A DNA stretch of 56,804 bases, from the IMG/VR virus record IMGVR_UViG_3300032240_000220, positions 1-56,804 of that record; one strand, 5' to 3'. The translations under genes and the position numbers were made by a program. Origin of the DNA: a virus (lineage: Duplodnaviria > Caudoviricetes). Of this stretch, positions 1 through 56,804 are shown piece after piece (positions within the stretch are counted from its first letter, which is position 1; each line of letters starts with the position of its first letter). The notes below the pieces were generated by a model that did no database searches, was not told where the DNA came from, and saw only the letters and a program-made list of their open reading frames with translations.

Positions 1-123
1 CGGTAAGGTCAAAGATCAACGCAAGGGTTGCGAACGCCATTAAAACGCACCAGCAAATTTGAAACTCAGTTAGTTCTTCTGTTTTCATATTTCCTCCACA
101 GTTATGCGGTACTGCTTGCCAAA
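1..123. repeat. Terminal direct repeat, copy 1 (circular assembly overlap)
   Basis: cggtaaggtcaaag...actgcttgccaaa is identical to 56682-56804. Confidence 0.97.
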
Positions 124-354
124 ACGGTCTTCTACCTCGATGGTCTTCTTAGTGGACTTGAAAGAACCATCCTCTGTCAAGTCATATTTTGGCTTGCTTA
201 CGCTTGAGAGTAGGCGCTCTTCGTCGTTGGCTTTGAGGTTTTTAGTGATCAATCCAGCAATGTAGTCACAGTAGGCAATGATGCCTTTGGTCTTGAAAGC
301 TGGGTTGCTGAAGAAGGTTTGGACAATCTCGTCCATGGTTTGAAAGTGATTCAT
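85..354 (-). CDS. Hypothetical phage protein
   Basis: 89-aa ORF with AAGGA RBS; its stop overlaps (ATGA) the next ORF, which crosses the origin. Confidence 0.75.
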   Translation of the reverse strand: MNHFQTMDEIVQTFFSNPAFKTKGIIAYCDYIAGLITKNLKANDEERLLSSVSKPKYDLTEDGSFKSTKKTIEVEDRFGKQYRITVEEI

Positions 355-364
355 GTTGGTTCCT

Positions 365-571
365 TTATGGATTTAAAAATGTGTTGTCTCTGACGGATTC
401 ATAAATACCTAACAATGCAATGTATTCCCCATAAGCTAGAACACGATCAAAGTCTGTTCTGTCCTTAATTTGGTTTGTCCCGTTGGTAGTAACAAATCCC
501 CACATGGTTTCCATCTTGGAGATTTGGTTCTCCAATTCGTTGATTAGGTTTTCTTTGCTGAAGCGAATCAT
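365..571 (-). CDS. Hypothetical phage protein
   Basis: 68-aa ORF with AGGAG RBS, tight operon packing. Confidence 0.7.
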   Translation of the reverse strand: MIRFSKENLINELENQISKMETMWGFVTTNGTNQIKDRTDFDRVLAYGEYIALLGIYESVRDNTFLNP

Positions 572-583
572 GTTGTGCTCCTG

Positions 584-808
584 TTAATAATCTTCGCCAG
601 CGCGGGCTGGTTGTGCACCCAAAAACTCAGGGTTATATGGCGCGTTTTGTTGCCATGTGATGGGTTGCTCTTGAGCAATTTGTTCGTTGGTAGCGTCAAT
701 GGCTAGGCGGATACGGTCAAGGCGTTCCCAGTCGCCTTCCGCAAAGCAGAGTTTTTCCTCAATTTGTAACGCCATCAAATGTTGTTGGAATTTGTAAAGT
801 TTGCTCAT
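584..808 (-). CDS. Hypothetical phage protein
   Basis: 74-aa ORF with AAGGGGA RBS. Confidence 0.7.
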   Translation of the reverse strand: MSKLYKFQQHLMALQIEEKLCFAEGDWERLDRIRLAIDATNEQIAQEQPITWQQNAPYNPEFLGAQPARAGEDY

Positions 809-818
809 ACCGTTCCCC

Positions 819-1136
819 TTATGCTGTTGGAGAGACTTTGATCACGGCGCTAGATGCACCACGGAATTGCTCAGCTTGCTCGGCAGTGATGCCAAAGTGC
901 GCGCACAGAGCGTCGAGGTCGATAGAACCTTTGCGGTTCTCGATAGTGACGCGAACACCGTACTTCTCGCCACGATGCTTGCCTTCGCCAAAGGTGTTAG
1001 AAATACCGTCCTTGAGCACTTTGCACTGTGCAGTAAGGTCTTTGACCTGACGATCCAACACAGCAAGTGTGTCGATGTCGTTGGTGATGGACTCGACTGT
1101 TGCGAGAGCTTGGATAGTTGCTTGTACATCTGTCAT
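819..1136 (-). CDS. Hypothetical phage protein (N-terminal coiled coil)
   Basis: 105-aa ORF with AAGGA RBS, first gene after the putative promoter. Confidence 0.75.
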   Translation of the reverse strand: MTDVQATIQALATVESITNDIDTLAVLDRQVKDLTAQCKVLKDGISNTFGEGKHRGEKYGVRVTIENRKGSIDLDALCAHFGITAEQAEQFRGASSAVIKVSPTA

Positions 1137-1182
1137 ATATTTCCTTTAGGTTATCGTTCCCGCAAATTGGTGCGGTAAAGAA

Positions 1183-1218
1183 ATTATAAGAGAAAATTTA
1201 AACATTCAACACTGTCAA
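1183..1218 (-). promoter_or_regulatory. Putative sigma70-type early promoter
   Basis: Perfect TATAAT (1183-1188, minus) with TTGAAT (1204-1209, 15-bp spacer) and TTGACA (1213-1218) upstream, in an AT-rich intergenic gap. Confidence 0.5.
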
Positions 1219-1275
1219 CAATTATTTTTCTAAGGAAAACCCTAATACGCCACCATCATTTAAATACATCTGTTT

Positions 1276-1551
1276 TCATTTCTCTGCCATGATGTAATCA
1301 ATGACGTTTTCCACCGTCTTGTTGAGGGCATCGATCTCATCCATCTTGGCAATAGCCCATGCGCGCTTTTCACCGTGCCAACCCATCTTGCTTCCCTGAT
1401 GGCAGGACTTGCACAGAGCTACCACTGTGTACTGCCTGTGTTGTTTGACGTGATGCGCATCGCTTGGGGCAGACGCTCCACATACAGAGCAGGGCAGGAG
1501 CTTGACTAGCCCTACGTAGGATCGCTCCTTTGCTGTGAGTGTGTTGTTCAC
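1276..1551 (-). CDS. Zn-binding HNH-like protein (Ref/DUF968-like)
   Basis: CSVC...AHHV...LCKSCHQG motif. Confidence 0.65.
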   Translation of the reverse strand: MNNTLTAKERSYVGLVKLLPCSVCGASAPSDAHHVKQHRQYTVVALCKSCHQGSKMGWHGEKRAWAIAKMDEIDALNKTVENVIDYIMAEK

Positions 1552-2643: not shown

Positions 2644-2821
2644 TCTCTGCTTTCAATTCATTAATTCGTTTTCTTACGTCAGCGCCTAATTTAATCCACA
2701 TCCTTGACTTGTCCTTCTCCATCTCCATGACCATGTGCCTTGCGTGATCGATTGATCCCTTGTGCATAGCCATTTGTGCGTAGTGCTCAATGATCTTTTT
2801 GTATCGCTCTTCAAGGCTCAT
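2627..2821 (-). CDS. Hypothetical protein
   Basis: 64-aa ORF translationally coupled to its neighbours. Confidence 0.65.
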   Translation of the reverse strand: MSLEERYKKIIEHYAQMAMHKGSIDHARHMVMEMEKDKSRMWIKLGADVRKRINELKAENENTT

Positions 2822-3681
2822 GCGGACACCAGTTTCATTCCAAAGTTGTTTACTTCATTCGGTACGTAAATGCCTTCAACTTTTTGTAGTTTGTTTTTCT
2901 TGAATGCGCGGTAGTCAACATGATGATGCCATCGATTGAATCGCCAAACAACTTTGGCTACGTCTGGATGCAAGTCTTCAATCATTTGCGACTTTGGAAG
3001 CGTTCCTTCTTTGGCATAGAACTCGTCGGTGTTTCCGCCCTTCATCTTCTGGGTGGTTGACTTCTCTTGCAAGAATGCGTTGAACTGCACAGTGCAGAGG
3101 CCAGCCTTGAGCACGCGCAGAGATAGGTCTGTGTCCTCGTTGTAGCGTCCACGCCAGCGCATGGGCAGGCTGTTATCAATGAGTAAACAGGAGTAGATGC
3201 GGGTGTTAAGCACAAAGGGAGGGATTTGCTCCTTGGCTTTGGCAAAGAAGTCGTAGTTAAAGCCTGCAATCGCGCAGTTGGTGTAGCGGTCGGCAAAGTC
3301 CTCAGCGACGCGGAAGATAGTGCCAGAAGTGACTTTGCACATGAGGTTGCGGTTGAGGCGGTTGAAGCTAGCGATGTTGTCGTCCATGACCCAGTGTCTA
3401 GCATGGGACAAGCTCACTGCGTGATCCCAGCAGAAGTTACGAGCCGCCCCGGGGCCTCTTCCCTTGTTGTCGCCTAGCTCGTCGCAGGTCTCATACTCCT
3501 TCAAGTATTTGGCAGGCAACACCAGCACCTTATCCGCTCCAACTGCCTGCGTGTATAGCTCGCGCTCGTGCTCCTCCACCACGATGTAGTAGGGCACGCT
3601 TATCTTGTCCAGCGCCTTGCTTGTCAGACGTGACTCCCACCGCCCTTTGGACACGATATAGATTGGATACTTAGGGTTCAT
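2818..3681 (-). CDS. TET/JBP-associated-type (GREB1-like, GT-A fold) glycosyltransferase; start revised to MNPKYPIY
   Basis: YPIYIVSKGR, GPGAARNF, HWVMDDN, IYSCLLI, RYNEDTDL and KGGNT motifs; ATG at 3681 overlaps the upstream stop. Confidence 0.8.
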   Translation of the reverse strand: MNPKYPIYIVSKGRWESRLTSKALDKISVPYYIVVEEHERELYTQAVGADKVLVLPAKYLKEYETCDELGDNKGRGPGAARNFCWDHAVSLSHARHWVMDDNIASFNRLNRNLMCKVTSGTIFRVAEDFADRYTNCAIAGFNYDFFAKAKEQIPPFVLNTRIYSCLLIDNSLPMRWRGRYNEDTDLSLRVLKAGLCTVQFNAFLQEKSTTQKMKGGNTDEFYAKEGTLPKSQMIEDLHPDVAKVVWRFNRWHHHVDYRAFKKNKLQKVEGIYVPNEVNNFGMKLVSA

Positions 3682-3916
3682 CGACGTACTTGTAAATTGA
3701 TGCTCTGCGTGGCTCCGCGTAGGGGAACCAAAGTGTTTTTTGTTTCTCAGTAATGCGCTGAGCCATGAGCTTCTCAAATTCAGCCACATCCTCAGCATTC
3801 CTGAAACGCACATTGATCACGCGGTAAGGGGTTAGGTCTTCCTGCACATACTCAGGCATGTTTTTCCATTCCTCGCGGAACGACTCCTCCAAGTCTTCAA
3901 ACAATTCTTTGGTCAT
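3671..3916 (-). CDS. Small conserved partner of the glycosyltransferase
   Basis: EWKNMPEY.QED...INVRF...D...F..L..Q.IT.K.K.LWFP pattern; overlaps the GT start. Confidence 0.7.
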   Translation of the reverse strand: MTKELFEDLEESFREEWKNMPEYVQEDLTPYRVINVRFRNAEDVAEFEKLMAQRITEKQKTLWFPYAEPRRASIYKYVDEP

Positions 3917-3917
3917 C

Positions 3918-4898
3918 TTAAAACTCCGAATAGAACTTCATCGGTGAGTCAGTTTCGTTTCCAAGGTACTGATTCGAGTCATTGTTAAACCATAAGGCGA
4001 TGCTTGGTTCATGGTCGCCGTTGCGTTGCTTCCTGCATAGCAGGCGTGCGTCTGGTTCTGTTTGGTGGTTGCTGTGCGCGCCTTTGATCTTCATGTCATC
4101 TTCTTTGCGCTTGTTTCTCCACACCATCATCACGTTGTCCACTTGGTCAGTAATAGAGCCTGAGCCTTTGTTGTCGTGCTTGTCAGGGACTTCGTTCTCG
4201 TCCTTGGGTTTGCGCAGGTGATGGACTAAGTGGATATGAACTCCGTAGTCACGCGCTATCGCTGTAATGGTGTCCACAAAATACTTCTGACCGTTGTAAT
4301 CGTCTTCACCCTTGACGCACTTCATCAGCGAGTCAATGAAAACATGTTGGATGCCTAGCTCGCTCGCGCAATACTTGACCATGCCAAGGACGGTCTCTGT
4401 GTCAGCGCTACCTTGCTGGTCGTAGAACCACATCCACTTCTCAATCCAACTGCCAAACTCGTCGTACAGGTCAAACAAAGTCTTGCGTCCTCCATCGCCC
4501 TCGAATGCTTCATGGTATGGATTCATGCCGATGTACTGGCGAACCATGCGCTTTAGGGTGGTGGCTGGCTTCATTTCAAAGCTAGCGATGCAAACCTTCT
4601 GGTCTTGACCGATGAGAGCTAGCGCAATCTGGCTTGTCATCATGGACTTGCCGTGACCGTTCTGTCCTGACCAAAGCGTGACCTCGCCTGCGCGAAAGTC
4701 AAACAATGGGTGAGTCTTGACCCATGGCAGATAAACCTTCTTTTTGGCAGGCGCTTCGGTCAAATCGTCCTTGATCTCCTCGATCCACTCCTTAGCTGGG
4801 CGGACTTTTGACTGCGCTTCAGTCATCGCCAAGTAGGCGGAAAAGTCAATGTCATCAGGAACGTAGTTAATAATTTGGTGCATACCATTCATCCTCAA
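3918..4898 (-). CDS. DnaB/T7 gp4-like SF4 replicative helicase
   Basis: Walker A SGQNGHGKS, SFEM, Walker B VFIDSL, HLVHHLRK, KGSGSITDQVDNV, KQRNG; true start may be a few codons downstream. Confidence 0.9.
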   Translation of the reverse strand: MRMNGMHQIINYVPDDIDFSAYLAMTEAQSKVRPAKEWIEEIKDDLTEAPAKKKVYLPWVKTHPLFDFRAGEVTLWSGQNGHGKSMMTSQIALALIGQDQKVCIASFEMKPATTLKRMVRQYIGMNPYHEAFEGDGGRKTLFDLYDEFGSWIEKWMWFYDQQGSADTETVLGMVKYCASELGIQHVFIDSLMKCVKGEDDYNGQKYFVDTITAIARDYGVHIHLVHHLRKPKDENEVPDKHDNKGSGSITDQVDNVMMVWRNKRKEDDMKIKGAHSNHQTEPDARLLCRKQRNGDHEPSIALWFNNDSNQYLGNETDSPMKFYSEF

Positions 4899-5229
4899 TA
4901 ATTTTGTCGAAGTTAGTCCGTCTGTCGTAGAAGCGGAACCAGTTGCGTTTAGGGGACTCAGACCAGCCAGATGCCACGATCTCTACGCCAGCACGCTTAG
5001 ATGCTTCAAAAAAGCCCTTGGCGCGCTCCAAAGTGCGTGCCTCTATGTTGACCCTCAGACCAACAAGAAAACGCAAATCAGCGCGTTCTGGGCGGTCGTC
5101 GTAGATAGAAACCTCTGGGGAGTCAGTTGGTTCGCGCCACTTAGTCGACAGTGGACGGTCAACCAAGAAGACGAGTTCAGGCTTGAGACCTTGTAGTCTC
5201 ATCTCGATTAGCTCTTTGTGACCACGCAT
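4867..5229 (-). CDS. Hypothetical protein between initiator and helicase
   Basis: 120-aa ORF with TGATG coupling to the upstream gene. Confidence 0.7.
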   Translation of the reverse strand: MRGHKELIEMRLQGLKPELVFLVDRPLSTKWREPTDSPEVSIYDDRPERADLRFLVGLRVNIEARTLERAKGFFEASKRAGVEIVASGWSESPKRNWFRFYDRRTNFDKIIEDEWYAPNY

Positions 5230-5912
5230 CAGATGTCTCCAGCAAACGGGCTTACAGCCACATCCTCTTGCGTTTCATCTTCCCAGCATCGCTGGTTTAA
5301 CCAAGTAGCAGGGTTCTTGACAAATCCCTCCTTGACCTTCTTGGATAACTTGTACTTGCCAACAGCGATTGTTATCAATCCTCTCAGTCTGGCATCAGGT
5401 TTGATCTTCTTCCAAGATTTGTAGGCTTCACCCTTGCCTGTCTTCTGTGGATAAAAATCCCAAAACTCTTCAAACTCTTGTGTATATAACTGGTTATTGG
5501 TTTTGGTTATTGGTTCTTGGTTGGCTTTCGAGTGGGTTGCCTCTGGGATGCCACTGGCTACCGACTGGGAACCCACTGGGTTTACATCCGCATGTTTATT
5601 GGCTTTGGGGCGTCCACCAAGTTTGCCGTTCCTGCGGTTTTTCTCTGCCATTTCGTGATAGTCGGCAATCACTTGATCACACTTAAGGTGCTTCCATCCC
5701 TTTTCTGTCTCAACAAAGTAGTCTTTTAAAACCGAGGTTAAGGTGTCGGTTCCCACTCGCAACCGTCTGGCAACCCAATGGGTTTCCAGTGGGATGTATT
5801 GCTCAGTGTCGTAATACATTTCCAGCAGGCGACGGTATGCCAAGTCCTCTTCGTTGGACAAATGCATCGTGGCTGACTTGTAGTCACCGATGTGATGAGG
5901 GTAGTAATGCAT
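5229..5912 (-). CDS. DUF1376/YdaU-family phage replication initiator
   Basis: MHYYPHHIGDY...HLSNEEDLAYRRLLEMYY, NGKLGGRP, C-terminal FEEFW..YP.K..K..A and PATWLNQRCWED. Confidence 0.85.
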   Translation of the reverse strand: MHYYPHHIGDYKSATMHLSNEEDLAYRRLLEMYYDTEQYIPLETHWVARRLRVGTDTLTSVLKDYFVETEKGWKHLKCDQVIADYHEMAEKNRRNGKLGGRPKANKHADVNPVGSQSVASGIPEATHSKANQEPITKTNNQLYTQEFEEFWDFYPQKTGKGEAYKSWKKIKPDARLRGLITIAVGKYKLSKKVKEGFVKNPATWLNQRCWEDETQEDVAVSPFAGDI

Positions 5913-5942
5913 GAAGTTTTACCTTTTTCCAGCACCTTTGAA

Positions 5943-6011
5943 GGAAGTTTCGGCAGGGGAAGGTGTAACCCTCTTCGGGCTGGGGAGCTACCCCAGTCCT
6001 AGCCGTCTTCC
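5943..6011 (-). ncRNA. Candidate structured leader RNA (three-way junction) upstream of the initiator
   Basis: Nested pairings GGAAG/CUUCC, CGGC-AGG/CCU-GCCG, CUGGGG/CCCCAG and a second inner hairpin. Confidence 0.5.
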
Positions 6012-6019
6012 AAACCATG

Positions 6020-6223
6020 TTACACCAAAAACAGATCACCTCGCAACTCTTCTTTGGTGACCAATCCTTGTGTAGCTTTTTCAATCTTCAGTGCTAGCTT
6101 TGGAGAAGCCTGCACCTTCCCGTAAATCAACTGAGACATCCAGACTTGGGTGATCCCAAGATACTCTGCCATCTCCTTGCGTGACCCATGGGGTTCTGTT
6201 TTGAAATACTCTTCTAGCGTCAT
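6020..6223 (-). CDS. Cro-like/YdaS-like HTH regulator (start revised to MTLEEY)
   Basis: MAEYLGITQVWMSQL HTH, ALKIEKATQGLVTKEELR.D signature, position upstream of the initiator. Confidence 0.85.
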   Translation of the reverse strand: MTLEEYFKTEPHGSRKEMAEYLGITQVWMSQLIYGKVQASPKLALKIEKATQGLVTKEELRGDLFLV

Positions 6224-6345
6224 CTTGGCATTGTACATAAATAAATTATTTAAGAATACCCCTGTAAATTACTCCAGATTTAAATATTTTATTAAATTGT
6301 GGTCTAATTCTTTTGCGTCGATACGACGATCTTCAAAGGAAAGTA
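6224..6345. promoter_or_regulatory. AT-rich divergent control region
   Basis: Very AT-rich non-coding gap at the switch between the minus and plus operons. Confidence 0.6.
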
Positions 6346-6630
6346 ATGACAATAAATTCAGTTCAACAGCCTGATCAGCCTACAACGATCACCCCCAAAG
6401 GCGCTACGCCAATAAGCACCAGCACAGGTGTTTTGATAGGCGTCTACTACAACCCTAGCCAACAACAAGACGTTACCGCAGAAGAAGAATTCTGGCGAGC
6501 GGTATTGCTTGACAACCCCAAAGTATACGTACTTAGCCGATTTGATTTAATCGTTGGCGCTGTACTTCTTGTTGGTGTTATTTGTTTGTTTGCATCCATC
6601 TTCACCATTACTTGGACGTATTCGTCATGA
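6346..6630 (+). CDS. Hypothetical membrane protein (start revised to MTINSV)
   Basis: AAGGA RBS before ATG 6346; C-terminal hydrophobic helix. Confidence 0.65.
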   Translation: MTINSVQQPDQPTTITPKGATPISTSTGVLIGVYYNPSQQQDVTAEEEFWRAVLLDNPKVYVLSRFDLIVGAVLLVGVICLFASIFTITWTYSS

Positions 6631-6839
6631 CACCATTAAAAGCAATCTGGTTCTCAGGTGGCAAAGGAACCATCGGCATTGTCCGAGCCGAGTCAGATCA
6701 AGGAGAGATCGGTTACTACATAGGTACTGGAGACGGTATGCATGAAGTGATTGATGTCAACAACATAGCCGCCCTTGGGGCGAGGTTTCCAGACAACGCT
6801 GGAGATTTATTGTTCAACATAAAAAAGGGTAAAAAATGA
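6627..6839 (+). CDS. Hypothetical protein (start revised to MTPLK)
   Basis: ATGA overlap with the previous stop. Confidence 0.65.
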   Translation: MTPLKAIWFSGGKGTIGIVRAESDQGEIGYYIGTGDGMHEVIDVNNIAALGARFPDNAGDLLFNIKKGKK

Positions 6840-7000
6840 AAATGAAAGATAGCACCGAACACGAAGAGTGGAAGAGAGACAAAAAAGAACAAGAGGAATA
6901 TGAACTTTGGAGGATAGAGCAAGACATTAAACAGATACCAACCCATTTACAACAATCTTTTAAACAAATTTTTGGAGAGAAAAATGAGCTTTTACGTTGA
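6836..7000 (+). CDS. Small hypothetical protein, 54 aa (not in ORF track)
   Basis: Hand-translated MKMKDSTEHEEWKRDKKEQEEYELWR...ELLR; ATGA coupling; fills the operon gap. Confidence 0.55.
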   Translation: MKMKDSTEHEEWKRDKKEQEEYELWRIEQDIKQIPTHLQQSFKQIFGEKNELLR

Positions 7001-7619
7001 AGATACAGGAACAACATTTGCACCAGTTCCAGCAGGTCTACACCTAGCACGTTGCTACCGAGTCATTGACTTAGGTACGCAGGAAACTAACTACGAAGGT
7101 AAGCGCGACTTCAAGCGCCAGCTAAAAATTGTCTGGGAAGTTCATGGCAATGATGACGACGGTAACGCCATCGTGACTGGCAAAGGCGAGCCAATGATCG
7201 TTACCAAAGACTACAACATGACTTGGAACGACAAGGGAACCCTACGCAAAGACCTGCAAGCATGGCGCGGTAAAGCCTTCACAGAGGAAGAGCAAAAGCG
7301 CTTTGACATCAAATCCATCCTAGACAAGTGGTGCATGTTAAACATTGCTCACAAGCCTAAGAAGACAGGTTCTGGTGTCTACGCTAACGTGGTTGGAATT
7401 ACCCCAGTTGTAGCCGCTTTAAAGAACTCCTTGCCCAAGGGACACAACCAGTGTGGAATCTTCATGCTTGGTGAACCTGACATGGAAATGTTTGAGACTT
7501 TTGGCAAGTACCTCAAGGAAACTATTCAGAAGGCTCCAGAGTGGAAAGCAGTTCAAGATCGTCCGAAGCATGAGCCTGCTGGCGCTTTTGACGACATGGA
7601 AGATGATCGCCCATTCTGA
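6984..7619 (+). CDS. Putative ssDNA-binding protein
   Basis: PAGLHLARCYRVIDLGTQ N-terminus, SSB-like acidic tail DDMEDDRPF, GGAG RBS. Confidence 0.7.
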   Translation: MSFYVEDTGTTFAPVPAGLHLARCYRVIDLGTQETNYEGKRDFKRQLKIVWEVHGNDDDGNAIVTGKGEPMIVTKDYNMTWNDKGTLRKDLQAWRGKAFTEEEQKRFDIKSILDKWCMLNIAHKPKKTGSGVYANVVGITPVVAALKNSLPKGHNQCGIFMLGEPDMEMFETFGKYLKETIQKAPEWKAVQDRPKHEPAGAFDDMEDDRPF

Positions 7620-7621
7620 TT

Positions 7622-7831
7622 ATGGAAGCACATCTTGACATTATCTTGAAGTGCTTGCGCAACCATGGTGCGCTTGGCAAAGATGGGATTTCTAGGGCTA
7701 CTGGTTTAGATGTAAATCAGTGCTCTAGAGCGCTTCCTATTTTGCAACGTCAGGGCTTGGTTGAATTAACAGGTAAAACTGTTATGTCTGACTCTAAGCG
7801 CCCTGAACGTGAGTGGAGGGCTGTGACATGA
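7622..7831 (+). CDS. Small winged-HTH protein
   Basis: ISRATGLDVNQCSRAL..L...GLVELTG. Confidence 0.65.
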   Translation: MEAHLDIILKCLRNHGALGKDGISRATGLDVNQCSRALPILQRQGLVELTGKTVMSDSKRPEREWRAVT

Positions 7832-8169
7832 GTCAGTTAGACATGTTTAATGAGCCTCCTAAACCACGCAGGCACTACGGCTCAATTCCATTAGCAAGAA
7901 ACACTGACCCTGAGACAAGCAGACAAGCTTACAAATATCTTGACACCAACAAGATTGAGAAAGAAGTTTGCTGGGCAATTGCACAGTTCCCAGAAGGGTG
8001 CATTTATGACGATGTGGTGGCTCTCTTGCCCCATCGCCGTGTACACAGCATTCAACCTAGATTTGCGCCTTTGTTGCGTAAGAGGTTTATTGTTTTGACT
8101 GGAGAGTCACGTTTTGGTCGCGCTGGACGTAAACAGCGAGTTTTTAAAATCAACAAGGAAAGATTATGA
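7828..8169 (+). CDS. HTH-like hypothetical protein
   Basis: ARNTDPETS..A and SIQPRFAPL motifs; GGAGG RBS. Confidence 0.6.
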   Translation: MSQLDMFNEPPKPRRHYGSIPLARNTDPETSRQAYKYLDTNKIEKEVCWAIAQFPEGCIYDDVVALLPHRRVHSIQPRFAPLLRKRFIVLTGESRFGRAGRKQRVFKINKERL

Positions 8170-8426
8170 AATATGTCGTGGCAATTGGGCTTTTAGCCCT
8201 TGTGGGGTGTAACACCACCTCAAACTTCCCAAGCCCTCCTCAGCAGTCCCTCATTGTGGACAGAGAGGTTCAGGGTATGAGCAGGAATGAAGTCATCATG
8301 GCTATACAGGAATGCGAAGCAGGCGGTTTACGTGCAGTCGTAATGACCACCAAACGCAAGATCAATGGGTACTCCTCAGACATTGTGTTTGATGTGACCT
8401 GCGCCCCTAAATTCAAAGTCTTTTAA
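8166..8426 (+). CDS. Putative lipoprotein
   Basis: Signal MKYVVAIGLLA plus lipobox LVGC. Confidence 0.7.
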   Translation: MKYVVAIGLLALVGCNTTSNFPSPPQQSLIVDREVQGMSRNEVIMAIQECEAGGLRAVVMTTKRKINGYSSDIVFDVTCAPKFKVF

Positions 8427-8435
8427 GGAAACCAT

Positions 8436-9194: not shown

Positions 9195-9196
9195 AA

Positions 9197-9445
9197 ATGG
9201 TAAAACTTGAAATAGAAAAATGCGATGTTGCATTCATTTGTGAAGCAATAGAACAAAGAGCCTTATATCTGACTACAAATATTATGGGCGCTACGATGAG
9301 TTCAATAAAGGATCAAATAAATGAGTTAAACGATCTTGCTAGTTCAGACGAGGAGGAAGCTTCAACTCCCAAAAAACCTCATTGGACGCAAACCGCTAAG
9401 GGCAAAGCCATCTTAGCCAAACGCAAACGCAGAAAAGCCAAATGA
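9197..9445 (+). CDS. Hypothetical protein with basic KKPHWTQT..GK tail (start revised)
   Basis: ATG at 9197 directly after the nuclease stop. Confidence 0.6.
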   Translation: MVKLEIEKCDVAFICEAIEQRALYLTTNIMGATMSSIKDQINELNDLASSDEEEASTPKKPHWTQTAKGKAILAKRKRRKAK

Positions 9446-9669
9446 CTGACAGATTGACACCTCAAGAAGTAGCAGAAGCATTCCGCAAGTGCTACCTCAA
9501 AGAGAACTACAACTTCTTAGAAGAAGACTTGCAAGAGTTGGCTAGAGGGCTAATCAAGGCGGCGGAACCCAAGATCGCCTTTGAGGAAAAGGAGAAGTGC
9601 ATCAAGTTTGTGCGCTCCCTCAACACTCAGGTAGCCCAAGCCTTACAAGACTTCAAAGGAGAAGTTTGA
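9442..9669 (+). CDS. Hypothetical protein
   Basis: 75-aa ORF, ATGA-coupled, last gene of the plus operon. Confidence 0.7.
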   Translation: MTDRLTPQEVAEAFRKCYLKENYNFLEEDLQELARGLIKAAEPKIAFEEKEKCIKFVRSLNTQVAQALQDFKGEV

Positions 9670-47256: not shown

Positions 47257-47269
47257 GTTTTAGCCTTCT

Positions 47270-49264: not shown

Positions 49265-52200
49265 AGTGGGCGTTCCTCAATGATTAGGTCGTCGCCAGTG
49301 ATCTCGCCACCCTCAGCCATTTTCTTAACCTTGCCACCCTTTTTCTTACCAGTGAGCTTCTTCATCATGTCTTCGTACTGTTTGATCTCGTCAATCATTT
49401 GCTGGTCAATGACTTGGCGAGGGCCTACCATCTTGAAGCTACCGAACTCTTGACCTGCTTGGGCGGGGTTCTCGCGGACGGACTTTAGGGTGTCAGGGAA
49501 GGACAGTTCGTAGGGGACAGGGTACTTAAGACCCCCGAGGAATTGACCGGGGATGTCGTGCGAGTACGTCGGATGGGAGGACAACTTCAAGTCTGTCACA
49601 TCAGGCTTCATCAACCCTAGCGACTTACCTGTCACCCCAATCTCGAGGTCACGCAGGCTTGGCTCCGTCACCGCATGGGCTACGTCCAATCCGCTTGGCA
49701 TGTTGAACTTCTCAGTCACCGTGGGCATTTGCATCAGGTTGCCAAAATGCTTGCGCATGTCTGGGTCAAGTGCGAACTGTAGATACATCTCTTCTGGGCG
49801 CTCGATCCCGGGGAACGAGGGGAAAATGCGCTGGCGCTTCACCTTCTTGCTGTCCACATATGGATAGCCCTCACGCACCATCTTGTTAAAGCCCTCGATC
49901 TGCCTCTTAGTCATCTCTTCTGGGCGAAGGTTTTGAATGTTTGTGTCCGCAAAGTGCTGGGCGTAACTGTAGGAGTCAGGCCCCATCATCACGTAATTGC
50001 CAACCACTGGCGACTCATGCAACTCAGACAGAGCCTTGGCGCGGTTCTGCACCCCTTGCGCCGCTCCAAGGTTTGATGCCCAGAACTCATCATCCTTGCC
50101 TAAGCCGTACAAAGGGCCTCCATGCTGTGGAGCAGGCGAGCGCAGGGTTCTGCCAGCCACTGAATGGATCGTCTGTCCTGAGATGGTTGGATCGCCTGAG
50201 ATACCCATCATCACGTTGCCCTTTAGGCTCTCGATGTCCACAGGGTTGACTGGCGGACGCTCAACACCTTCCGTTGGGCGGATGTCGTGCTCTAGCGTCT
50301 TCTCGCGCTCGAACTGCTTCTGAGTCTTGCCTGCCACAGTCTTCGCGGTCTTGTCACTTGCGCGGACGTACTCACCAGTCATCTGAGGTGCAATGCGTTG
50401 GGCGATGGCTTCAATCTCTGCCTTGCTCTTAGCAGGGGCGCGTGCAAGCTTGATGAGCTTCTCAACTGCTCCGCCTTTGCCTTTGTTTTGTTCACGTTCT
50501 GCCTGCTCACGAGCCATGCGATCCATCTCTTCACGAATCTGCTCGTTGGTCATCTGGAAGGGTTTGACCTCGTTGTACGGGATTGAGGCGGTCTCAGCCT
50601 TGTACTTGTTCATCAGGTTGACTCTGGCTTGGAACTCAGGCTTCAACGCCTTCATGCGCTCGAGTGCCTCGATAGCCGCCTTGCTCAGTGATCCACCTGC
50701 ACTCATGTGCTGATCCATCACAGCCATGTGTTGGCAGTCGGAGTTGTCAGAGATGGAGACCTTACCGCCCTTCTTCATGCCAGCTTCTGGTGGGGGAGGA
50801 ATGTCAATGCCTAATTCTTTTTTGGCTTGGTTAATCTTTTCTATTGCACGAGCAATAGGAGCGTATTTTGTTTCGCCGCTCTCCATCCAGTCTTCTGGTC
50901 TAGTCAAAAGCGCTTTTAATTCGTTGTAAGTGTAAGGAACATTCTTTGAGATTGTCTTACCTGCATTGGTTTGCAACTCAGTGTATTCAGGGCTTGGTAT
51001 GGCTCCACTGAATTCATCAAAAGCTTTATTGCTAAGTCGATGCTGTTCAAGCGCAGGATGCGTGTCTAAAAAGTTTACAGCCTCAGAAACCAAAGGCTGA
51101 TACTTTGCTTCTGCTTCTGGATGAGTCAAATAGTCAGAACCAAACTTACTCAAACCAGTGTTTCGCAAGTCGCCAACGTCTGACCATTGATCACCTCGCA
51201 CAAAATCCTGTACGTAAGGCAGATACTGTTCTTTAGGCGCTTGGTTTTGTTTGCCTTTGATCTGGACAATTTGAGGAGGCATTTCGCTTTGCTTCTTGTC
51301 TAGCAATGCAAATTGCAACTCTTTTACTCTGTTGTTATAGAACTGATCGCGCTGAGGAAATGTTGCAAAGTTTTGAGCGTTGGCTTCATTGTTTGCCTGC
51401 TCATAAATTGCATTCATTTCGTTATGGTCAGTGCGCGCTTGGCTTGGTCGAACCTCAATAGTCACATGAGGCTCACCACGCTTATCACGCAGGCTATAAA
51501 TGCGTGACCTGCCCTCTATTACATCAGGACAGTAGCCACCTACGCAGTGACCCATGGTGTCGCCTTCGTACTTGAGGGCGTTTTCAAGCAACTGCCTTGG
51601 ATTGCCGGGCGCGTCTGGATGCCTGTTATACAAGTTTTTAATAAGATCAGGCAAGTCACTTCCAATAACTCGCACGCCTTCAGGAGATACAGCGCGCACA
51701 ACACCACCTTTTGGCTCAATCATTTTCCAGCCTTTAGGAAGTACATTTGGCATTTTTGGCGTAGCCAACTCAACCCACTTGTATCCCTCTGGATATTCTT
51801 TGTGCAGTGGCATTCCCTCAGTGTTCTTGATCTGAGTCTCAGCCATCTTCTTAGCCTGCTCAGCGTTGAAGTCCGCGGCGCGCTTGATCGCTTGATCTAC
51901 CGTGATCTTGTTGAGTTGCTCAGGGCGGATGCGACCCGCCATAACGTCTTGCTTGAGGACGTCAACAACATGGTCAAAGCCAAGGTTGTAAATGTCGCCA
52001 GAGTAAAGCGTGGCTTCTGGGTCGAGCTTGCTTATCCAAGGATTTTGTTCGCCAGTTACGAAGTCGTTGCCTGAGAGCCTACCTTGTAAGTTGGCTTGCT
52101 TGACTCGAAGTTGCCCAAACTCTTCGCCCTCGCCAATCATGTTCGCCTTGTCATACGTGGACATCTTGTCCATCAAGCTTTCTAATTCATCTGGCTTTAA

Positions 52201-53460
52201 GACAACTTTGCCTTCCAAATATTTTCTAAATTTCTGATCTATCTCAAGTTCTTTTTCTAATAGCTGTTGCGTTACCTTCTGAGCTTCTGGCATTATTCCC
52301 AAAGCTTCTTGGATGTCTCCAGCCCTTCTGGTTTGGATGGCTTCATCACTAAGGTTCTCCCATGCTTTGGCAGGCATAGACTTAGCCTCACCCTCGGGAT
52401 TAAAGCCAGCCTTCTCACGCTGTCCTCGCATGTCCCTGTCAGAGACGTATTTTGCTGATTCTTCCACTTCATCCGCTGGCATGTGGGTGATGTGCTTCAT
52501 AGCAAAGTCGCGGTCAAACTCAGCCTCAGACGCTAACCTGTCAGCCTCTCGGGTCAGGTTGGCTTGTCTGCGTGGGTCAGCTTCTTGTTGGGCACGCTCT
52601 TTTGTACGGTTAGCGCGCTCCATGTCCTTGGCGTACTTGCTCTCGACCTCTTGCACGCGATTCTCAAACATCAAGCGCACTGGATCGTTTGGCGTAGCCA
52701 TCTGCTTCTTGACGTAGTTGCCAAGGTTCTGGGTTACCCACTTGTCGAGCGCCGCCTCTTTCTTCGTTGTGTCAAGGTGACGCTGAATGATTGCGCGACC
52801 ATCATCATTTATGGCTGGGTCTAGCAACGCACGCTCATGCAAAGGAATGCGTTCAGCAGGTGTTTGGTTAACAATAGTTGGCGTGGTCAGTCGATTGAGC
52901 GATCTGTCCACGCTGTTCATCAAGTCGCCACCAGTCCAGTTACCGCCTTCAGGCTTGACCACATTTGTTATCGCCATGCGTGGGGCTAGGGCGGAGAGTG
53001 GGCCAGAGGACAGAGGGCCAGTCTGGTGAATCAGGGCATCATTGATTGCTTTGCCAGTCATCCGCGTGCCAGCGCCGAGACCACGTCCTAAGCCGTAGGT
53101 CACAGCTTTAGCCGCTGTGCCAGACAACGGAGCAGGGGCAAACTCACCCATCGATCCATACATCTCAGCGGTGTGCTTGCGTGATGGGGATGCGTTCTGC
53201 GGTACAGCAGGAGGAAGCATCTGGTTCATCTCTTCAGTCGTTGGCATGACGCGACGACCAAAAACGGATTGCATTGTCTCTGGTGCTATTGCGCGTGCAA
53301 CATCGCTGATGTCACCAGCCGCGCCCGCTGTGCCTGCAACAGAACCACGCAGTGCGCCTGCCATCATGTCGCCCAATGCTTGGGCTGGTTCTGCAAAGCT
53401 CTTGAGGTCAGAGACTACTCTATCAAGCGTGAGTTGGCGTTGAGCGCGAGGGTTGGGCAT
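49261..53460 (-). CDS. Large multi-domain protein with PcfJ-like domain
   Basis: EGDTMGHCVGGY...IYSLRD...PHVTIEV...QIKGKQN; a second globular region follows the KKGG linker. Confidence 0.7.
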   Translation of the reverse strand: MPNPRAQRQLTLDRVVSDLKSFAEPAQALGDMMAGALRGSVAGTAGAAGDISDVARAIAPETMQSVFGRRVMPTTEEMNQMLPPAVPQNASPSRKHTAEMYGSMGEFAPAPLSGTAAKAVTYGLGRGLGAGTRMTGKAINDALIHQTGPLSSGPLSALAPRMAITNVVKPEGGNWTGGDLMNSVDRSLNRLTTPTIVNQTPAERIPLHERALLDPAINDDGRAIIQRHLDTTKKEAALDKWVTQNLGNYVKKQMATPNDPVRLMFENRVQEVESKYAKDMERANRTKERAQQEADPRRQANLTREADRLASEAEFDRDFAMKHITHMPADEVEESAKYVSDRDMRGQREKAGFNPEGEAKSMPAKAWENLSDEAIQTRRAGDIQEALGIMPEAQKVTQQLLEKELEIDQKFRKYLEGKVVLKPDELESLMDKMSTYDKANMIGEGEEFGQLRVKQANLQGRLSGNDFVTGEQNPWISKLDPEATLYSGDIYNLGFDHVVDVLKQDVMAGRIRPEQLNKITVDQAIKRAADFNAEQAKKMAETQIKNTEGMPLHKEYPEGYKWVELATPKMPNVLPKGWKMIEPKGGVVRAVSPEGVRVIGSDLPDLIKNLYNRHPDAPGNPRQLLENALKYEGDTMGHCVGGYCPDVIEGRSRIYSLRDKRGEPHVTIEVRPSQARTDHNEMNAIYEQANNEANAQNFATFPQRDQFYNNRVKELQFALLDKKQSEMPPQIVQIKGKQNQAPKEQYLPYVQDFVRGDQWSDVGDLRNTGLSKFGSDYLTHPEAEAKYQPLVSEAVNFLDTHPALEQHRLSNKAFDEFSGAIPSPEYTELQTNAGKTISKNVPYTYNELKALLTRPEDWMESGETKYAPIARAIEKINQAKKELGIDIPPPPEAGMKKGGKVSISDNSDCQHMAVMDQHMSAGGSLSKAAIEALERMKALKPEFQARVNLMNKYKAETASIPYNEVKPFQMTNEQIREEMDRMAREQAEREQNKGKGGAVEKLIKLARAPAKSKAEIEAIAQRIAPQMTGEYVRASDKTAKTVAGKTQKQFEREKTLEHDIRPTEGVERPPVNPVDIESLKGNVMMGISGDPTISGQTIHSVAGRTLRSPAPQHGGPLYGLGKDDEFWASNLGAAQGVQNRAKALSELHESPVVGNYVMMGPDSYSYAQHFADTNIQNLRPEEMTKRQIEGFNKMVREGYPYVDSKKVKRQRIFPSFPGIERPEEMYLQFALDPDMRKHFGNLMQMPTVTEKFNMPSGLDVAHAVTEPSLRDLEIGVTGKSLGLMKPDVTDLKLSSHPTYSHDIPGQFLGGLKYPVPYELSFPDTLKSVRENPAQAGQEFGSFKMVGPRQVIDQQMIDEIKQYEDMMKKLTGKKKGGKVKKMAEGGEITGDDLIIEERPL

Positions 53461-53513
53461 TCTGACCTCGGTTAGTTAGGTGTGCTAATCATACAGACTC
53501 AAGCTTGTCAAGT

Positions 53514-54956
53514 CTACACAGCATATGGGTTTTCTCGTCTCTGTCTTCCGCTGTCAATGTAGTCGTCCTCGTCATACGCTTCTGGTGGTTCGCCATCAAT
53601 GTCGATCCAGCCTGAGTCCCTCAAGTACCTAAGAGCCTGCGTGGTCATGTCCACAAAGTCGTCGTGGCTCGTGTCAGGGAAAGCGCACAGTTGGCTGAGC
53701 CACGGTTCGCACCAGTCTTTGACGAACTTGGGACGCTCACTGCTCTCTGGTGCCCAGACTCTGCCACGAGCGAAGATGCTGGAGACGACGTTCAGGCGTT
53801 GCATCTTGTCCGCGTGCCCCGGGTTATACGCTCTCACAGGCAGATGCGACCTCCCCAAGTCTTGGATCAACTGCGTCCCTGCGCTTTTGTCCTCCACCAG
53901 TATCAGGTCTACCCTCTTCCTGTCTTGCCCCTCGCCATACACCACCTCGTACTCCTCCGCCACCTTCGGGCGTAGGTCAGGGTATTGCAGGCGGTCTTGC
54001 CAACAGTCGATGAGCATCACGGACATGGGGCCATCCAACGGTTTGAACACACCCCACGTTCCCGCGGCGGTTGGGTCATTGACCGTCTTCTCGCTCGTTG
54101 CGCAGTCATAGCTCTGGAGGATGTACTCAAACTTGGGGAAGGTTTTGCCGTTGGGCCACAGCTTAATCATCTCGCGCTTGATGATGCCTGACTCCTCTGG
54201 ATCGATGATCTCCGCATGGATCTCCTGCCTACCGATCTTGGTTCCCTCGTACTGAAGGATCTGCTTCTGGAAGGTTGTGGATAGGTTGGCAAGGTTGGCG
54301 TAGGTCGAGGCGGTAGTTACCGTCACATCGTCACCATCCCTGCCCACCAAGTCAACGATCAAGTCTTTGGGCTGTGGAGTAGTTGTGCATAAGATTTTGT
54401 TGCCTAAGTCTGTGAGGGGTAAGCGGACGGAGAACATGATCTGATCCCACGCCTCGTCCAAGTAATCCCATGCCGCTAGCTCATCGCACCACGCTCCGTG
54501 GAACTGAGGGCCTCGGAAGCGACTAGGTTCAGACGCTGGGATGCCCTTGAGTATTGAGCCATTGAGTAGCACCATCTCATGGAGCGCCTTGTTGTAGTCA
54601 AGCACCAACTCCTTGGGGATGATGTTGACTAGCCCTGAGTCACCCTCAAAGCACGTACCACGCACGTCCGCAGAGGTAGGAGCCGACACCAACCATCGAG
54701 TGTTAGGGTATGACCACGCCCACCAGCCGATCTGCTCCGCCGCGGTTCTGGTCTTACCCGCTCCACGACCTGCGAGGAGGAGCCATATCGTCCACCAGTT
54801 CCCCTTTGGTAGCGTCTGGTGCTGGTGCTGGGTAGCGTACCAACCCATGCGCCATGTGAACGCTATCTGTGACGCTACAGGTAGGGCAAGGAACTGCTTA
54901 CGGGTATCAGGGTGCTTGAGCGCCTCAAGCGTCTCTGACACTACATCGCTATCCAT
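53514..54956 (-). CDS. terL: Terminase large subunit
   Basis: Walker A AGRGAGKT, Walker B WCDE, TTTP motif III, nuclease QSYD...HDDFVD. Confidence 0.95.
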   Translation of the reverse strand: MDSDVVSETLEALKHPDTRKQFLALPVASQIAFTWRMGWYATQHQHQTLPKGNWWTIWLLLAGRGAGKTRTAAEQIGWWAWSYPNTRWLVSAPTSADVRGTCFEGDSGLVNIIPKELVLDYNKALHEMVLLNGSILKGIPASEPSRFRGPQFHGAWCDELAAWDYLDEAWDQIMFSVRLPLTDLGNKILCTTTPQPKDLIVDLVGRDGDDVTVTTASTYANLANLSTTFQKQILQYEGTKIGRQEIHAEIIDPEESGIIKREMIKLWPNGKTFPKFEYILQSYDCATSEKTVNDPTAAGTWGVFKPLDGPMSVMLIDCWQDRLQYPDLRPKVAEEYEVVYGEGQDRKRVDLILVEDKSAGTQLIQDLGRSHLPVRAYNPGHADKMQRLNVVSSIFARGRVWAPESSERPKFVKDWCEPWLSQLCAFPDTSHDDFVDMTTQALRYLRDSGWIDIDGEPPEAYDEDDYIDSGRQRRENPYAV

Positions 54957-55509
54957 TCTTGGCTTGTAACTTTAGTTCTACGTTCTTGAGCAGGGCGTCG
55001 AACATGGTCATACCAAGTTTCTCTGGGTTATCTGGGTCGCCACCGATCTGTACCTTGTCACCGTACTTGCGGGGCTTGAGCTTCATAGCTGTCCACTTAC
55101 GTGCCTCTATGCGTTGCTTCTGCCAAGCAATGTAGGTAGGGTCTAGGGTAGTGCGCCCCTTTTCGTCGGTGTACTCAGGGGGCATTTCGTCAGCAATAGC
55201 GAGGATTTGGTCAGCGTTTGTATCCGCCTGCTCTTCTCGTGCGCGCACGTACATCTCTGAAAACTCTTCGTGCCTCAACAACCACACGTACACAGTCGAC
55301 TGCACAGGCATGTGATCATCGTTCGTTATCTGTACTAAAGACTCTCCGTTACTTAGTCTTTCACATATGACTCTAGCTGTCTCTATGTTGTATGAGGAGG
55401 GTTTACCTACTTTTTTCTTTTCCTTTGTTGGCGGCTCAACTGTAAGTTGCGCGAAAGCTTCTACAAAGGGTGTTAGGTTCTCTACTGTTTTTGTCTTAGT
55501 CTTAGCCAT
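54949..55509 (-). CDS. terS: Terminase small subunit (Sf6-like)
   Basis: ICERLSNGESL..I....MP...TVY.WL...F..MY.RARE.QAD, RKW.A.KL.P.KYGDK. Confidence 0.9.
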   Translation of the reverse strand: MAKTKTKTVENLTPFVEAFAQLTVEPPTKEKKKVGKPSSYNIETARVICERLSNGESLVQITNDDHMPVQSTVYVWLLRHEEFSEMYVRAREEQADTNADQILAIADEMPPEYTDEKGRTTLDPTYIAWQKQRIEARKWTAMKLKPRKYGDKVQIGGDPDNPEKLGMTMFDALLKNVELKLQAKNG

Positions 55510-55544
55510 GGTCAACAATTCTTTCAGTTGATAGTTGGCATATT

Positions 55545-55697
55545 TTAATCTGAACTTTCAATTTCTTTCAAGCGCTCAGAGAGTATCCTGAGTTCCTCCT
55601 CCATGTTGGTGAGGAGGGTTTGTAAGGACTTGATAGCAGTAACCGCTAGCTCTGGGTTCCTCCTAATGTATTCAGGACTCCATATTTCCTCAGTCAT
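55545..55697 (-). CDS. Small hypothetical protein, 50 aa (not in ORF track)
   Basis: Hand-translated MTEEIWSPEYIRRNPELAV...EIESSD; ATGA-coupled. Confidence 0.55.
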   Translation of the reverse strand: MTEEIWSPEYIRRNPELAVTAIKSLQTLLTNMEEELRILSERLKEIESSD

Positions 55698-55891
55698 GTG
55701 TTTTTATCCTTTAATTTGGCTTCTGCCCATTCAACAGCAAGTTCCCAAACTACTGCATCATTTGATGAGGTTGGCTTACTTGCTTCAATCTCTTCTTCTG
55801 TCAACCCAACCCAAGGTTTCTTGTAGTCTTGGATGTCATCGTCCTCTTCCACTCTGCGGTGTGGCACTGATATGCCGATTGGTCTAGTCAT
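55694..55891 (-). CDS. Small phage protein with W.GLT.EEI motif
   Basis: PWVGLTEEEI...AEAKLKDKNT; ATGA-coupled. Confidence 0.7.
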   Translation of the reverse strand: MTRPIGISVPHRRVEEDDDIQDYKKPWVGLTEEEIEASKPTSSNDAVVWELAVEWAEAKLKDKNT

Positions 55892-56091
55892 GCTTGTCCC
55901 CTTGCACGAACTCGGTCAGCCAAATATTGCTCATCACATTCTTTTTCAAGCCACACAGCAATCGCCTCACGCTCATGCTCTGCTACCAGTTTGGCAAAGG
56001 CTTCAACTTGCTTCATGGAATCTTCACTTATGTATTTCAAGTAATCCATTCCAACCTGTCTAGCCATCTCAATGATTTCATCTTGTGTCAT
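55888..56091 (-). CDS. Small phage protein (start revised to MTQDEIIEMARQVG)
   Basis: AGGAG RBS, FAKLVAEHEREA...IRARG-like motif. Confidence 0.7.
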   Translation of the reverse strand: MTQDEIIEMARQVGMDYLKYISEDSMKQVEAFAKLVAEHEREAIAVWLEKECDEQYLADRVRARGQA

Positions 56092-56279
56092 GTGTTCTTC
56101 TCCTTTGCGGTTTGCATCAAAACTTTTAACTGTTCTTTGTTGATCTTGTACCAAGGTCTATGTCCACCAGCTTTGTACCCAGCAGAATAGATTGTTTTAA
56201 TTTGTTCTTTAAATTCTTCATTCCTAAAAATGTTGTCTTCCTCTTCCCACCACATCTCAAAGTCGTTATCAAGGTTCAC
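56088..56279 (-). CDS. Hypothetical protein
   Basis: 63-aa coupled ORF. Confidence 0.6.
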   Translation of the reverse strand: MNLDNDFEMWWEEEDNIFRNEEFKEQIKTIYSAGYKAGGHRPWYKINKEQLKVLMQTAKEKNT

Positions 56280-56476
56280 CGCTTCATGCCTCGCACGTAG
56301 GCGGCGAAGCTCGCAGGCGTGTCCCCAACCATCTTCTCAATCTCCAGCGCCACTTCCTCAAGCACTGTGTTGCGGTCAGGGATAGACCTCAAGTTCTCCA
56401 CCAGATCACGCACCAAGTTCTGTGATCCGTCGGTCACCCCAGTTGATATTGCCATCTGGTCTTCCTTGTAACCCAT
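56276..56476 (-). CDS. Hypothetical protein
   Basis: RNTVLEEVA.EIEKM..DT.ASFA.YVRGMK; AGGAG RBS. Confidence 0.65.
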   Translation of the reverse strand: MGYKEDQMAISTGVTDGSQNLVRDLVENLRSIPDRNTVLEEVALEIEKMVGDTPASFAAYVRGMKR

Positions 56477-56479
56477 GGC

Positions 56480-56671
56480 TTACTCCTTGGTGTTAGTTAA
56501 CTTTTTGCCATCTTGAACTGGGTAAGCGGTGTTTTTGCCCTTCAAATGTGAGATCAGGTCACCTAAGAACATGTGGTGGTGCTTGGCATACCTCTCAATC
56601 TCGTGGACGATGAAGTCGCACCCAGACTCGAAGCCTCGGATGTAGTCTTTGTTGAGGTATGCATCCATCAT
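56480..56671 (-). CDS. Hypothetical protein
   Basis: 63-aa coupled ORF. Confidence 0.6.
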   Translation of the reverse strand: MMDAYLNKDYIRGFESGCDFIVHEIERYAKHHHMFLGDLISHLKGKNTAYPVQDGKKLTNTKE

Positions 56672-56769
56672 GGTCTCCAGACGGTAAGGTCAAAGATCAA
56701 CGCAAGGGTTGCGAACGCCATTAAAACGCACCAGCAAATTTGAAACTCAGTTAGTTCTTCTGTTTTCAT
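56668..56769 (-). CDS. 33-aa membrane peptide spanning the circular junction
   Basis: MKTEELTEFQICWCVLMAFATLALIFDLTVWRP; GGAGG RBS; ATGA overlaps on both sides. Confidence 0.6.
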   Translation of the reverse strand: MKTEELTEFQICWCVLMAFATLALIFDLTVWRP

Positions 56770-56804
56770 ATTTCCTCCACAGTTATGCGGTACTGCTTGC
56801 CAAA
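56682..56804. repeat. Terminal direct repeat, copy 2
   Basis: Identical to 1-123. Confidence 0.97.

Follow-up and report, generated by a model that had tools for sequence, protein, structure and literature searches.

The viral record IMGVR_UViG_3300032240_000220 (Duplodnaviria; Caudoviricetes), hereafter the window, is the whole stretch of DNA analysed: a single contig of 56,804 bp, which represents the entire assembly and is the complete genome of a podovirus-like, apparently virulent phage. The window shows no copy of the word GCWGC (W, A or T) on either strand over its full length, and GCWGC is one of about twenty palindromic words purged from this genome. The loss of GCWGC and of the other words is very probably due to selection by Type II restriction-modification (R-M) systems of the hosts. 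An earlier note on this DNA had described the absence of GCWGC and ascribed it to strong selection by a host restriction or methylation system. The avoidance is real and selection at the DNA level is observed, but the pressure corresponds to a repertoire of systems rather than to one, and we infer host restriction as its source from the pattern of the missing words.

GCWGC and the other missing words

The number of GCWGC sites expected in the window depends on the null model and is large in all of them. In 100 dinucleotide-preserving shuffles the mean was 178.5 (standard deviation 13.2). The maximal-order Markov expectation, summed over both strands, was 115.3 for GCAGC and 115.3 for GCTGC, which corresponds to about 115 sites, and 300 within-gene shuffles of synonymous codons, which retain every protein and the codon usage of each gene, gave 135.8 (standard deviation 8.4, minimum 116). 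The complete avoidance claimed in the earlier note therefore holds under the three nulls (0 copies against 178, 115 and 136), the observed/expected ratio (O/E) is not near 1 in either the Markov or the codon-shuffled comparison, and the note's prediction of around 100 copies was of the right order (115-178.5, according to the model).

Codon choice shows the same absence. Simple calling of open reading frames (ORFs) gave 62 ORFs in the window, and they contain 152 alanine-alanine (Ala-Ala) pairs, in which the first codon is GCC in 78 cases, GCG in 74, and GCT or GCA in none. When Ala is followed by another residue, the codons are GCT (643), GCA (526), GCC (269) and GCG (302), so that GCT and GCA account for 1169 of 1740. 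The earlier statement that Ala-Ala is always written with GCC or GCG first is thus exact, in 152 of 152 pairs. It had singled out the Ala-rich stretch at 14400-17450, where single alanines were said to be mostly GCT or GCA: this stretch contains 47 Ala-Ala pairs, with GCC (27) or GCG (20) as first codon, and its remaining Ala codons are GCA (102), GCT (102), GCG (48) and GCC (37), as described. The two strings quoted from it stand at the positions given, 14411 and 14431, respectively; the minus strand carries the gene at this place, but strand is irrelevant for a palindromic word. Other residues show equivalent gaps wherever their codons would complete the word. Glutamine in the context G|CAR|C is encoded by CAA 32 times and never by CAG (579 CAA and 303 CAG window-wide), leucine in the context G|NNN|C by CTG in none of 47 cases, serine after an NGC codon by AGC in none of 63, and cysteine after an NGC codon by TGT five times and never by TGC.

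GCWGC is accompanied by many other missing words. Against synonymous-codon shuffles, CCWGG (0, 67.4 expected) and GGWCC (0, 59.7 expected) are absent, and CCGG (22, 103 expected) and GGCC (45, 139 expected) are strongly reduced. Only eight 5-mers show a zero count: the six words that make up three SSWSS palindromes (S, C or G), and CCGGA/TCCGG. Among six-base palindromes 18 of 64 are absent, compared with 92 of 4096 for all six-mers, and all palindromic six-mers together reach 496 copies, where 834-855 would be expected. When 8000 palindromic patterns with spacers of 0 to 7 were compared with codon shuffles, 37 had an expectation of at least 8 and an O/E of at most 0.15. They include the degenerate words SAGCTS (0 observed, 61.5 expected), RCCGGY (0, 43.6), WCCGGW (0, 34.8), YGGCCR (3, 44.4) and GRGCYC (0, 27.2), and the six-base words CAGCTG (0, 22.3), CTGCAG (1, 21.0), AACGTT (1, 19.8) and GGTACC (0, 17.0). 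The list also contains GAGCTC, CAGCTC, GAGCCC, GGCGCC, GCATGC, ACGCGT, TCGCGA, CGTACG, CACGTG, TTCGAA, CGATCG and a few more. The purge of this 57-kb genome therefore extends to two words of four bases, three of five and about fifteen of six.

Control words with a similar composition are unaffected. GCSGC is found 328 times (308 expected) and CGWCG 136 times (127 expected) in both-strand counts, and GATC 194 times (190.5 expected) and GCGC 303 times (256 expected) against codon shuffles. Several six-base palindromes are also kept, namely CCGCGG (19), GCGCGC (22), GCTAGC (22), CTCGAG (8) and GTCGAC (9), and CCATGG is likewise unpurged. The purge is consequently directed at a specific list of words and is not a general avoidance of palindromes or of G+C.

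Some words of the list could be merged into degenerate ones. A single BanI-type word, GGYRCC, was rejected: its six survivors are all GGTGCC/GGCACC, and GGTACC and GGCGCC are at zero, so that two six-base words fit better. SAGCTS is no more than a candidate for a single avoided word, since its three parts vary separately among the relatives. The asymmetric CAGCTC/GAGCTG, with no copy against 36 expected, is besides GAGCCC/GGGCTC the only clearly purged word that is not a palindrome. CAGCTC is presumably the site of a Type IIS enzyme, and we take PvuII, PstI, KpnI, AvaII, HpaII and HaeIII to be the names of enzymes that correspond to other words of the list.

Residual sites and the cost to the proteins

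The sites that survive are explained largely by the genetic code. The 22 remaining CCGG sites (3449..53822, the first at 3449 and the last at 53819) are each located on a proline-glycine (Pro-Gly) codon pair, and all 22 Pro-Gly pairs of the window carry CCGG. They are written as CCC-GGN in 18 cases and as CCG-GGN in four, and the site is always flanked as CCCGG or CCGGG. Since CCWGG is banned, Pro-Gly can be written only in these two ways, both of which contain CCGG. A new specificity DCCGGH, which the flanks could have suggested, was discarded because Pro-Gly coding explains them at all 22 sites. In the case of GGCC, 35 of the 45 survivors lie on Gly-Pro (29) or on tryptophan-proline (Trp-Pro; six), and both dipeptides force GGCC because GGWCC is banned. 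CCGG is therefore purged wherever the code permits it, and GGCC nearly so, with ten removable sites left.

The three most depleted dipeptides of the window, relative to shuffles of the residues within each protein, are Ala-Ala (152, 244.7 expected), Pro-Gly (22, 63.4 expected; O/E 0.35) and Gly-Pro (29, 63.4 expected). Ala-Ala is still encodable and its depletion is moderate; in the largely Ala-rich ORF of 1716 amino acids, described below, it amounts to 61 observed against 106.8 expected. The same dipeptides were compared in the relatives of the phage, with the window excluded; the loci are related to each other, so the contrasts are indicative and not formal tests. The O/E of Pro-Gly is 1.01 in the 24 loci which purge neither CCWGG nor CCGG outside CCSGG, 0.99 in the 26 which purge only CCWGG, 0.93 in the six which purge only CCGG outside CCSGG, and 0.66 in the 26 which purge both. 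Overlapping bans on CCWGG and CCGG can thus make Pro-Gly costly. The O/E of Ala-Ala is 0.91 in the 30 relatives free of GCWGC and 1.06 in the other 53. Gly-Pro is low in all relatives (0.54 compared with 0.62), and for this reason most of its depletion has another cause.

Relatives and turnover of the missing words

The nearest named relative of the window is the uncultured phage MW202545.1, with 61% identity in the terminase and 65% in the portal protein. More distant are the Caulobacter phages RW, KcrB, RLK and GB2A, with 42-46% identity (46% for the RW portal), and the Roseobacter phages CRP-901 and CRP-902, with about 33% (33% for the CRP-901 portal). A megablast search with 25 kb of the window found no near-identical phage record. 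A search with the portal protein returned 80 viral contigs and 19 contigs from metagenome-assembled genomes (MAGs); the relatives are mostly uncultured viral contigs. A portal tree was built with FastTree from 84 rows, which are the 80 viral contigs, three named phages and the window, and a word was scored as avoided when a dinucleotide model gave an expectation of at least 8 and the O/E did not exceed 0.15.

Counting the window, 31 of the 84 rows avoid GCWGC and 53 retain it, which requires at least seven changes of state on the tree; the 83 relatives comprise 30 without GCWGC and 53 in which its frequency is as expected. The other words show an equally scattered distribution: CCWGG is avoided in 53 rows and present in 30 (at least 15 changes), GGWCC in 37 and 46 (at least 11), RCCGGY in 29 and 47 (at least 13), GRGCYC in 41 and 39 (at least 14), and GGYRCC in 14 and 64 (at least 12). 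The closest relative, L004, with 95% portal identity, shows the same purge pattern as the window, and L007, with 79% portal identity, contains 67 copies of GCWGC against 66 expected. GCWGC is purged and CCWGG kept in L008, L011 and L081-L083, and many rows show the converse. The purged words thus vary independently among relatives. A second set of 80 viral contigs, which overlaps with the first, was retrieved with the glycosyltransferase (TAGT) gene described below. Of the 73 contigs testable for GCWGC, 32 purge it; the corresponding figures are 59 of 67 for CCWGG and 38 of 52 for GGWCC, and the control words GCSGC and CGWCG are purged in none of 45 and in one of 31, respectively.

CAGCTG shows a different distribution, since it is avoided in 30 of 30 testable rows, including Caulobacter phage RW and CRP-901, and present only in a few loci of low expectation. 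Despite their very different hosts, RW, CRP-901 and MW202545.1 contain few or no copies of CAGCTG and CTGCAG; in RW, CAGCTG shows none of 25 expected copies.

A pair of relatives, L035 and L040, with 88% DNA identity over 7.8 kb, gives a measure of the speed of the process. L035 contains 37 CCWGG sites (30 expected) and L040 none (32 expected). Of the CCWGG sites of L035, 24 could be aligned with L040, and none of these is intact there, 21 being disrupted by a single change, whereas neutral decay at 88% identity would keep about half of them (0.88 to the fifth power). The purge or the re-gain of a word can therefore be very fast.

The route by which sites are lost was followed by aligning the GCWGC sites of six non-avoiding relatives with the window. 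The encoded residues are the same at 80 of the 186 aligned sites and different at 106, and 17 sites were not aligned; the fraction 80/186 fits a protein identity of about 70-79% over two or three residues. Single-base differences affect all five positions of the word. The commonest is W to S at the centre (11 of 24 single changes between L007 and the window, 14 of 25 between L009 and the window), and C to T at position 2 or G to A at position 4, the deamination type, represents only six of 24 and three of 25, respectively. Because the changes are varied and few of them are of the deamination type, they indicate selection on the word rather than mutational decay or a base-calling artefact. Sites disappear through many different and often synonymous changes.

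Gene content and the source of the selection

The 62 ORFs of the window cover 96% of its length and almost all are on the minus strand; no tRNA genes were found. The presence of a terminase large subunit (53514..54956, minus strand; phrog_38, E-value 5e-24), with 60.7% identity to that of MW202545.1 and 42% to that of Caulobacter phage RW, identifies the window as the genome of a tailed phage. It is accompanied by an Sf6-like terminase small subunit (54949..55518, minus strand; PF20901, 4.8e-36), by the portal protein used as query for the relatives and for the tree (44737..47256, minus strand), and by a probable major head protein (40920..41834, minus strand; phrog_4523, phrog_371). The early or replication module contains a DnaB-like replicative helicase recognised by profile matches (3918..4898, minus strand), and a PD-(D/E)XK nuclease-like protein, which resembles recombination exonucleases (phrog_298), is encoded at 8436-9194. 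Other genes encode virion lysins, a primosomal/DUF1376 protein and a GroES-like protein. Four giant proteins range from 1228 to 1726 amino acids. The ORF of 1716 amino acids (13642..18792, minus strand) has no Pfam family above cut-off and is presumed to encode a virion or internal protein; it contains 25% Ala overall and 33% over 14400-17450, about 1000 residues. A protein of 1399 amino acids (49261-53460, minus strand) shows as its sole match a short PcfJ-like stretch at residues 628-683 (E-value 7e-7); it sits between the portal-side genes and the terminase, and the ORF at that place is shorter in the relatives. No integrase or repressor family was recognised among the window ORFs scanned, which are a part of the 62 and many of which have no match at all.

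The window also encodes a glycosyltransferase of the TAGT (TET-associated) family (2818..3813, minus strand; PF20691, E-value 1.5e-46, bit score 159, with the family cut-off at 27.5; phrog_842, 1e-53), with at least 597 relatives in viral contigs. It is a possible second anti-restriction device, based on modification. Of the components of a TET-associated hypermodification system (TET/JBP, methylase and TAGT) the window shows TAGT, and no TET/JBP, C5-methylase or hydroxymethylase was recognised among the ORFs scanned. Next to the TAGT homologues in 80 viral loci lie genes for recombination (YqaJ, ERF, Sak, NinB), for a helicase and for an HNH protein, and the ten commonest unassigned neighbour families contain no TET/JBP, methylase or hydroxymethylase. 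The ORF of 207 amino acids at 1883-2506 was considered as a hidden TET and rejected: it has no Pfam or PHROG match, is unlike the 2OG-Fe(II) oxygenase of MW202545.1, and its atlas matches are below 0.9.

Host Type II restriction would account for the pattern as follows. Under selection, the phage DNA would have been recoded until the targets of the Type II endonucleases of its hosts were gone, and the incoming, unmodified DNA would then offer nothing for these enzymes to cut. Any point mutation compatible with the protein, in most cases a synonymous one, would serve to remove a site; where no synonymous route exists the site would persist and the dipeptide become rare, as may be the case for Pro-Gly under the bans on CCWGG and CCGG, and for Gly-Pro and Trp-Pro. 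The cutter of GCWGC would be either a palindromic enzyme similar to TseI and ApeKI or one of Type IIS similar to BbvI. On the two strands together, GCAGC covers the same sites as GCWGC, so that the two types are indistinguishable from sequence; the TseI/ApeKI-type assignment in the earlier note matches the word, but a BbvI-type enzyme predicts the identical missing word. A pointer on the type of enzyme is that almost all other purged words are palindromes. With about twenty specificities, either one host has a great many systems or the pressure is summed over a diverse host population, and the second is favoured because the purge is mosaic among relatives.

Avoidance of restriction sites is classically known from T7 and from Bacillus phages, and the phenomenon in the window is this known anti-restriction strategy, here unusually clean and broad. 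In the passages on site elimination of Rusinov et al. (2018; PMC6286503), elimination is typical for orthodox Type II systems and for non-temperate dsDNA phages, and it is complete or nearly complete in about one tenth of viral genomes. The window resembles those cases in the elimination of palindromes of the orthodox Type II kind, in the absence of an integrase among the ORFs scanned and in the conservation of its proteins. It differs in the breadth of the purge and in its reach into the proteome (22 Pro-Gly against 63 expected); the surveyed cases are defined by the pairing of host and enzyme. For GCWGC, the passages on lake methylomes in 10.1101/380360 describe methylation in three Chloroflexi bins from a freshwater lake and the use of TseI as GCWGC cutter. 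The part of PMC4081073 on BbvI gives it as a Type IIS system with endonuclease GCAGC 8/12 and methylase GCWGC, and PMC8557920, in its part on the enzyme, is the source for ApeKI. The target of TseI/ApeKI (Type IIP) and of BbvI (Type IIS) is the missing word, and its A/T centre fits the unaffected GCSGC; no enzyme of these types was found for the phage or linked to it. A literature search on avoidance of restriction sites or palindromes in freshwater phages yielded nothing specific to this phage clade.

The group of MW202545.1 and the Caulobacter and Roseobacter phages has the gene order terminase-portal-head-tail in common with the window. MW202545.1, RW and CRP-901 also purge CAGCTG and CTGCAG, and CRP-901 additionally purges CCWGG, GRGCYC and GGYRCC. 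Unlike the window, RW and CRP-901 keep GCWGC (276 against 269 expected and 190 against 160 expected, respectively), and their replication modules differ from that of the window; RW has its own DNA polymerase.

Several points weigh against an origin in host Type II restriction. Neither a cognate endonuclease nor a cognate methylase was found, and the agent is one that we infer. About twenty specificities are a lot for one strain, and the loss of CAGCTG in all testable rows of the clade would be surprising if the cause were purely host-specific and could reflect a lineage-wide factor. The phage has a glycosyltransferase of a DNA-modification type, and avoidance would be needless if this enzyme modified all cytosines. 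The expectations for the relatives are dinucleotide models on pieces of 7-22 kb, and counts across relatives are phylogenetically non-independent. The MAGs do not supply a host: the bins with the 19 clade contigs (L087-L105) belong to Planctomycetota, Opitutae, Burkholderiaceae/Betaproteobacteria, Gammaproteobacteria, Saccharibacteria, Acidobacteriaceae and others. The contigs are spread over at least seven phyla or classes, with two in one Burkholderiaceae bin, and none of the 18 testable ones avoids GCWGC. Because of these mixed phyla and the lack of avoidance the bins give no host for the window phage, and the placement of the contigs is probably due to binning errors and not to prophages. 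Among sequencing runs, one contains the stretch and may be its source; all others share 6-12% of the sampled words with it and do not point to a habitat or a host.

Restriction that depends on methylation is unlikely as the alternative source, although the wording of the earlier note, restriction or methylation, allowed it. GCWGC would be methylated in some strains, by an orphan methylase or by that of a system, and the progeny would then be cut elsewhere by BisI-like enzymes which need methylated GCNGC; the disadvantage of the word would lie in its being methylated and not in cleavage of the unmodified site. GCWGC methylases are described in lake bacteria, in the same passages of 10.1101/380360, and on prophages, in the part of PMC8936443 devoted to them, and enzymes of the BisI family cleave methylated GCNGC. 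However, the passages of PMC6286503 on modification-dependent enzymes report weak avoidance only, ascribed to overlapping orthodox Type II sites. The roughly twenty other words would need a separate case, and the complete elimination suggests a pressure at every infection.

A cause on the side of the phage is still less probable. A nuclease or DNA-binding function of the phage or its lineage would act on the words, perhaps in the degradation of host DNA, and the phage would keep its own genome clean. The loss of CAGCTG in all 30 testable relatives irrespective of host is in line with this, as is the PD-(D/E)XK nuclease-like protein of the window, but that protein resembles recombination exonucleases, and no restriction-endonuclease family was recognised among the window ORFs scanned. 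Moreover, the words switch independently between close relatives, with at least seven to 15 changes each, so that many nucleases would have to come and go.

Deamination of 5-methylcytosine to thymine is a known route of site loss, and GCWGC methylated by the host could in principle have decayed without selection. This mutational erosion is highly improbable, being contradicted by the codon-context tables and by the spectrum of single changes: the commonest change falls on the centre of the word, which cannot be methylated, Ala-Ala is rewritten as GCC/GCG-GCN and not as GTN, and decay would not give 0 of about 136 sites with the proteins intact. Some long-read chemistries are known to produce errors at particular methylated motifs, but a base-calling or assembly artefact that strips the words from the consensus has a practically negligible probability and was rejected on the 96% coding density with long intact ORFs, on replacements which obey the genetic code, with residual CCGG and GGCC following dipeptide necessity, and on the same purge in thirty independent contigs of other assemblies.

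With selection by host Type II systems as the preferred cause, the list of purged words may plausibly, if tentatively, be read as a fingerprint of about twenty Type II specificities in uncultured hosts, with a turnover faster than 12% DNA divergence and with an effect that extends to protein sequence. Within it, the asymmetric co-purged word CAGCTC/GAGCTG may stand for a specificity not yet tied to any lake bacterium, either SAGCTS or that of a Type IIS enzyme. If this reading is true, restriction pressure measurably shapes phage proteomes, and purge fingerprints combined with metagenomic methylomes could assign uncultured phages to their hosts in a culture-free way. The all-or-none combinations of words in the 80 viral contigs and the three named phages constitute a natural experiment on the speed of restriction-driven rewriting.

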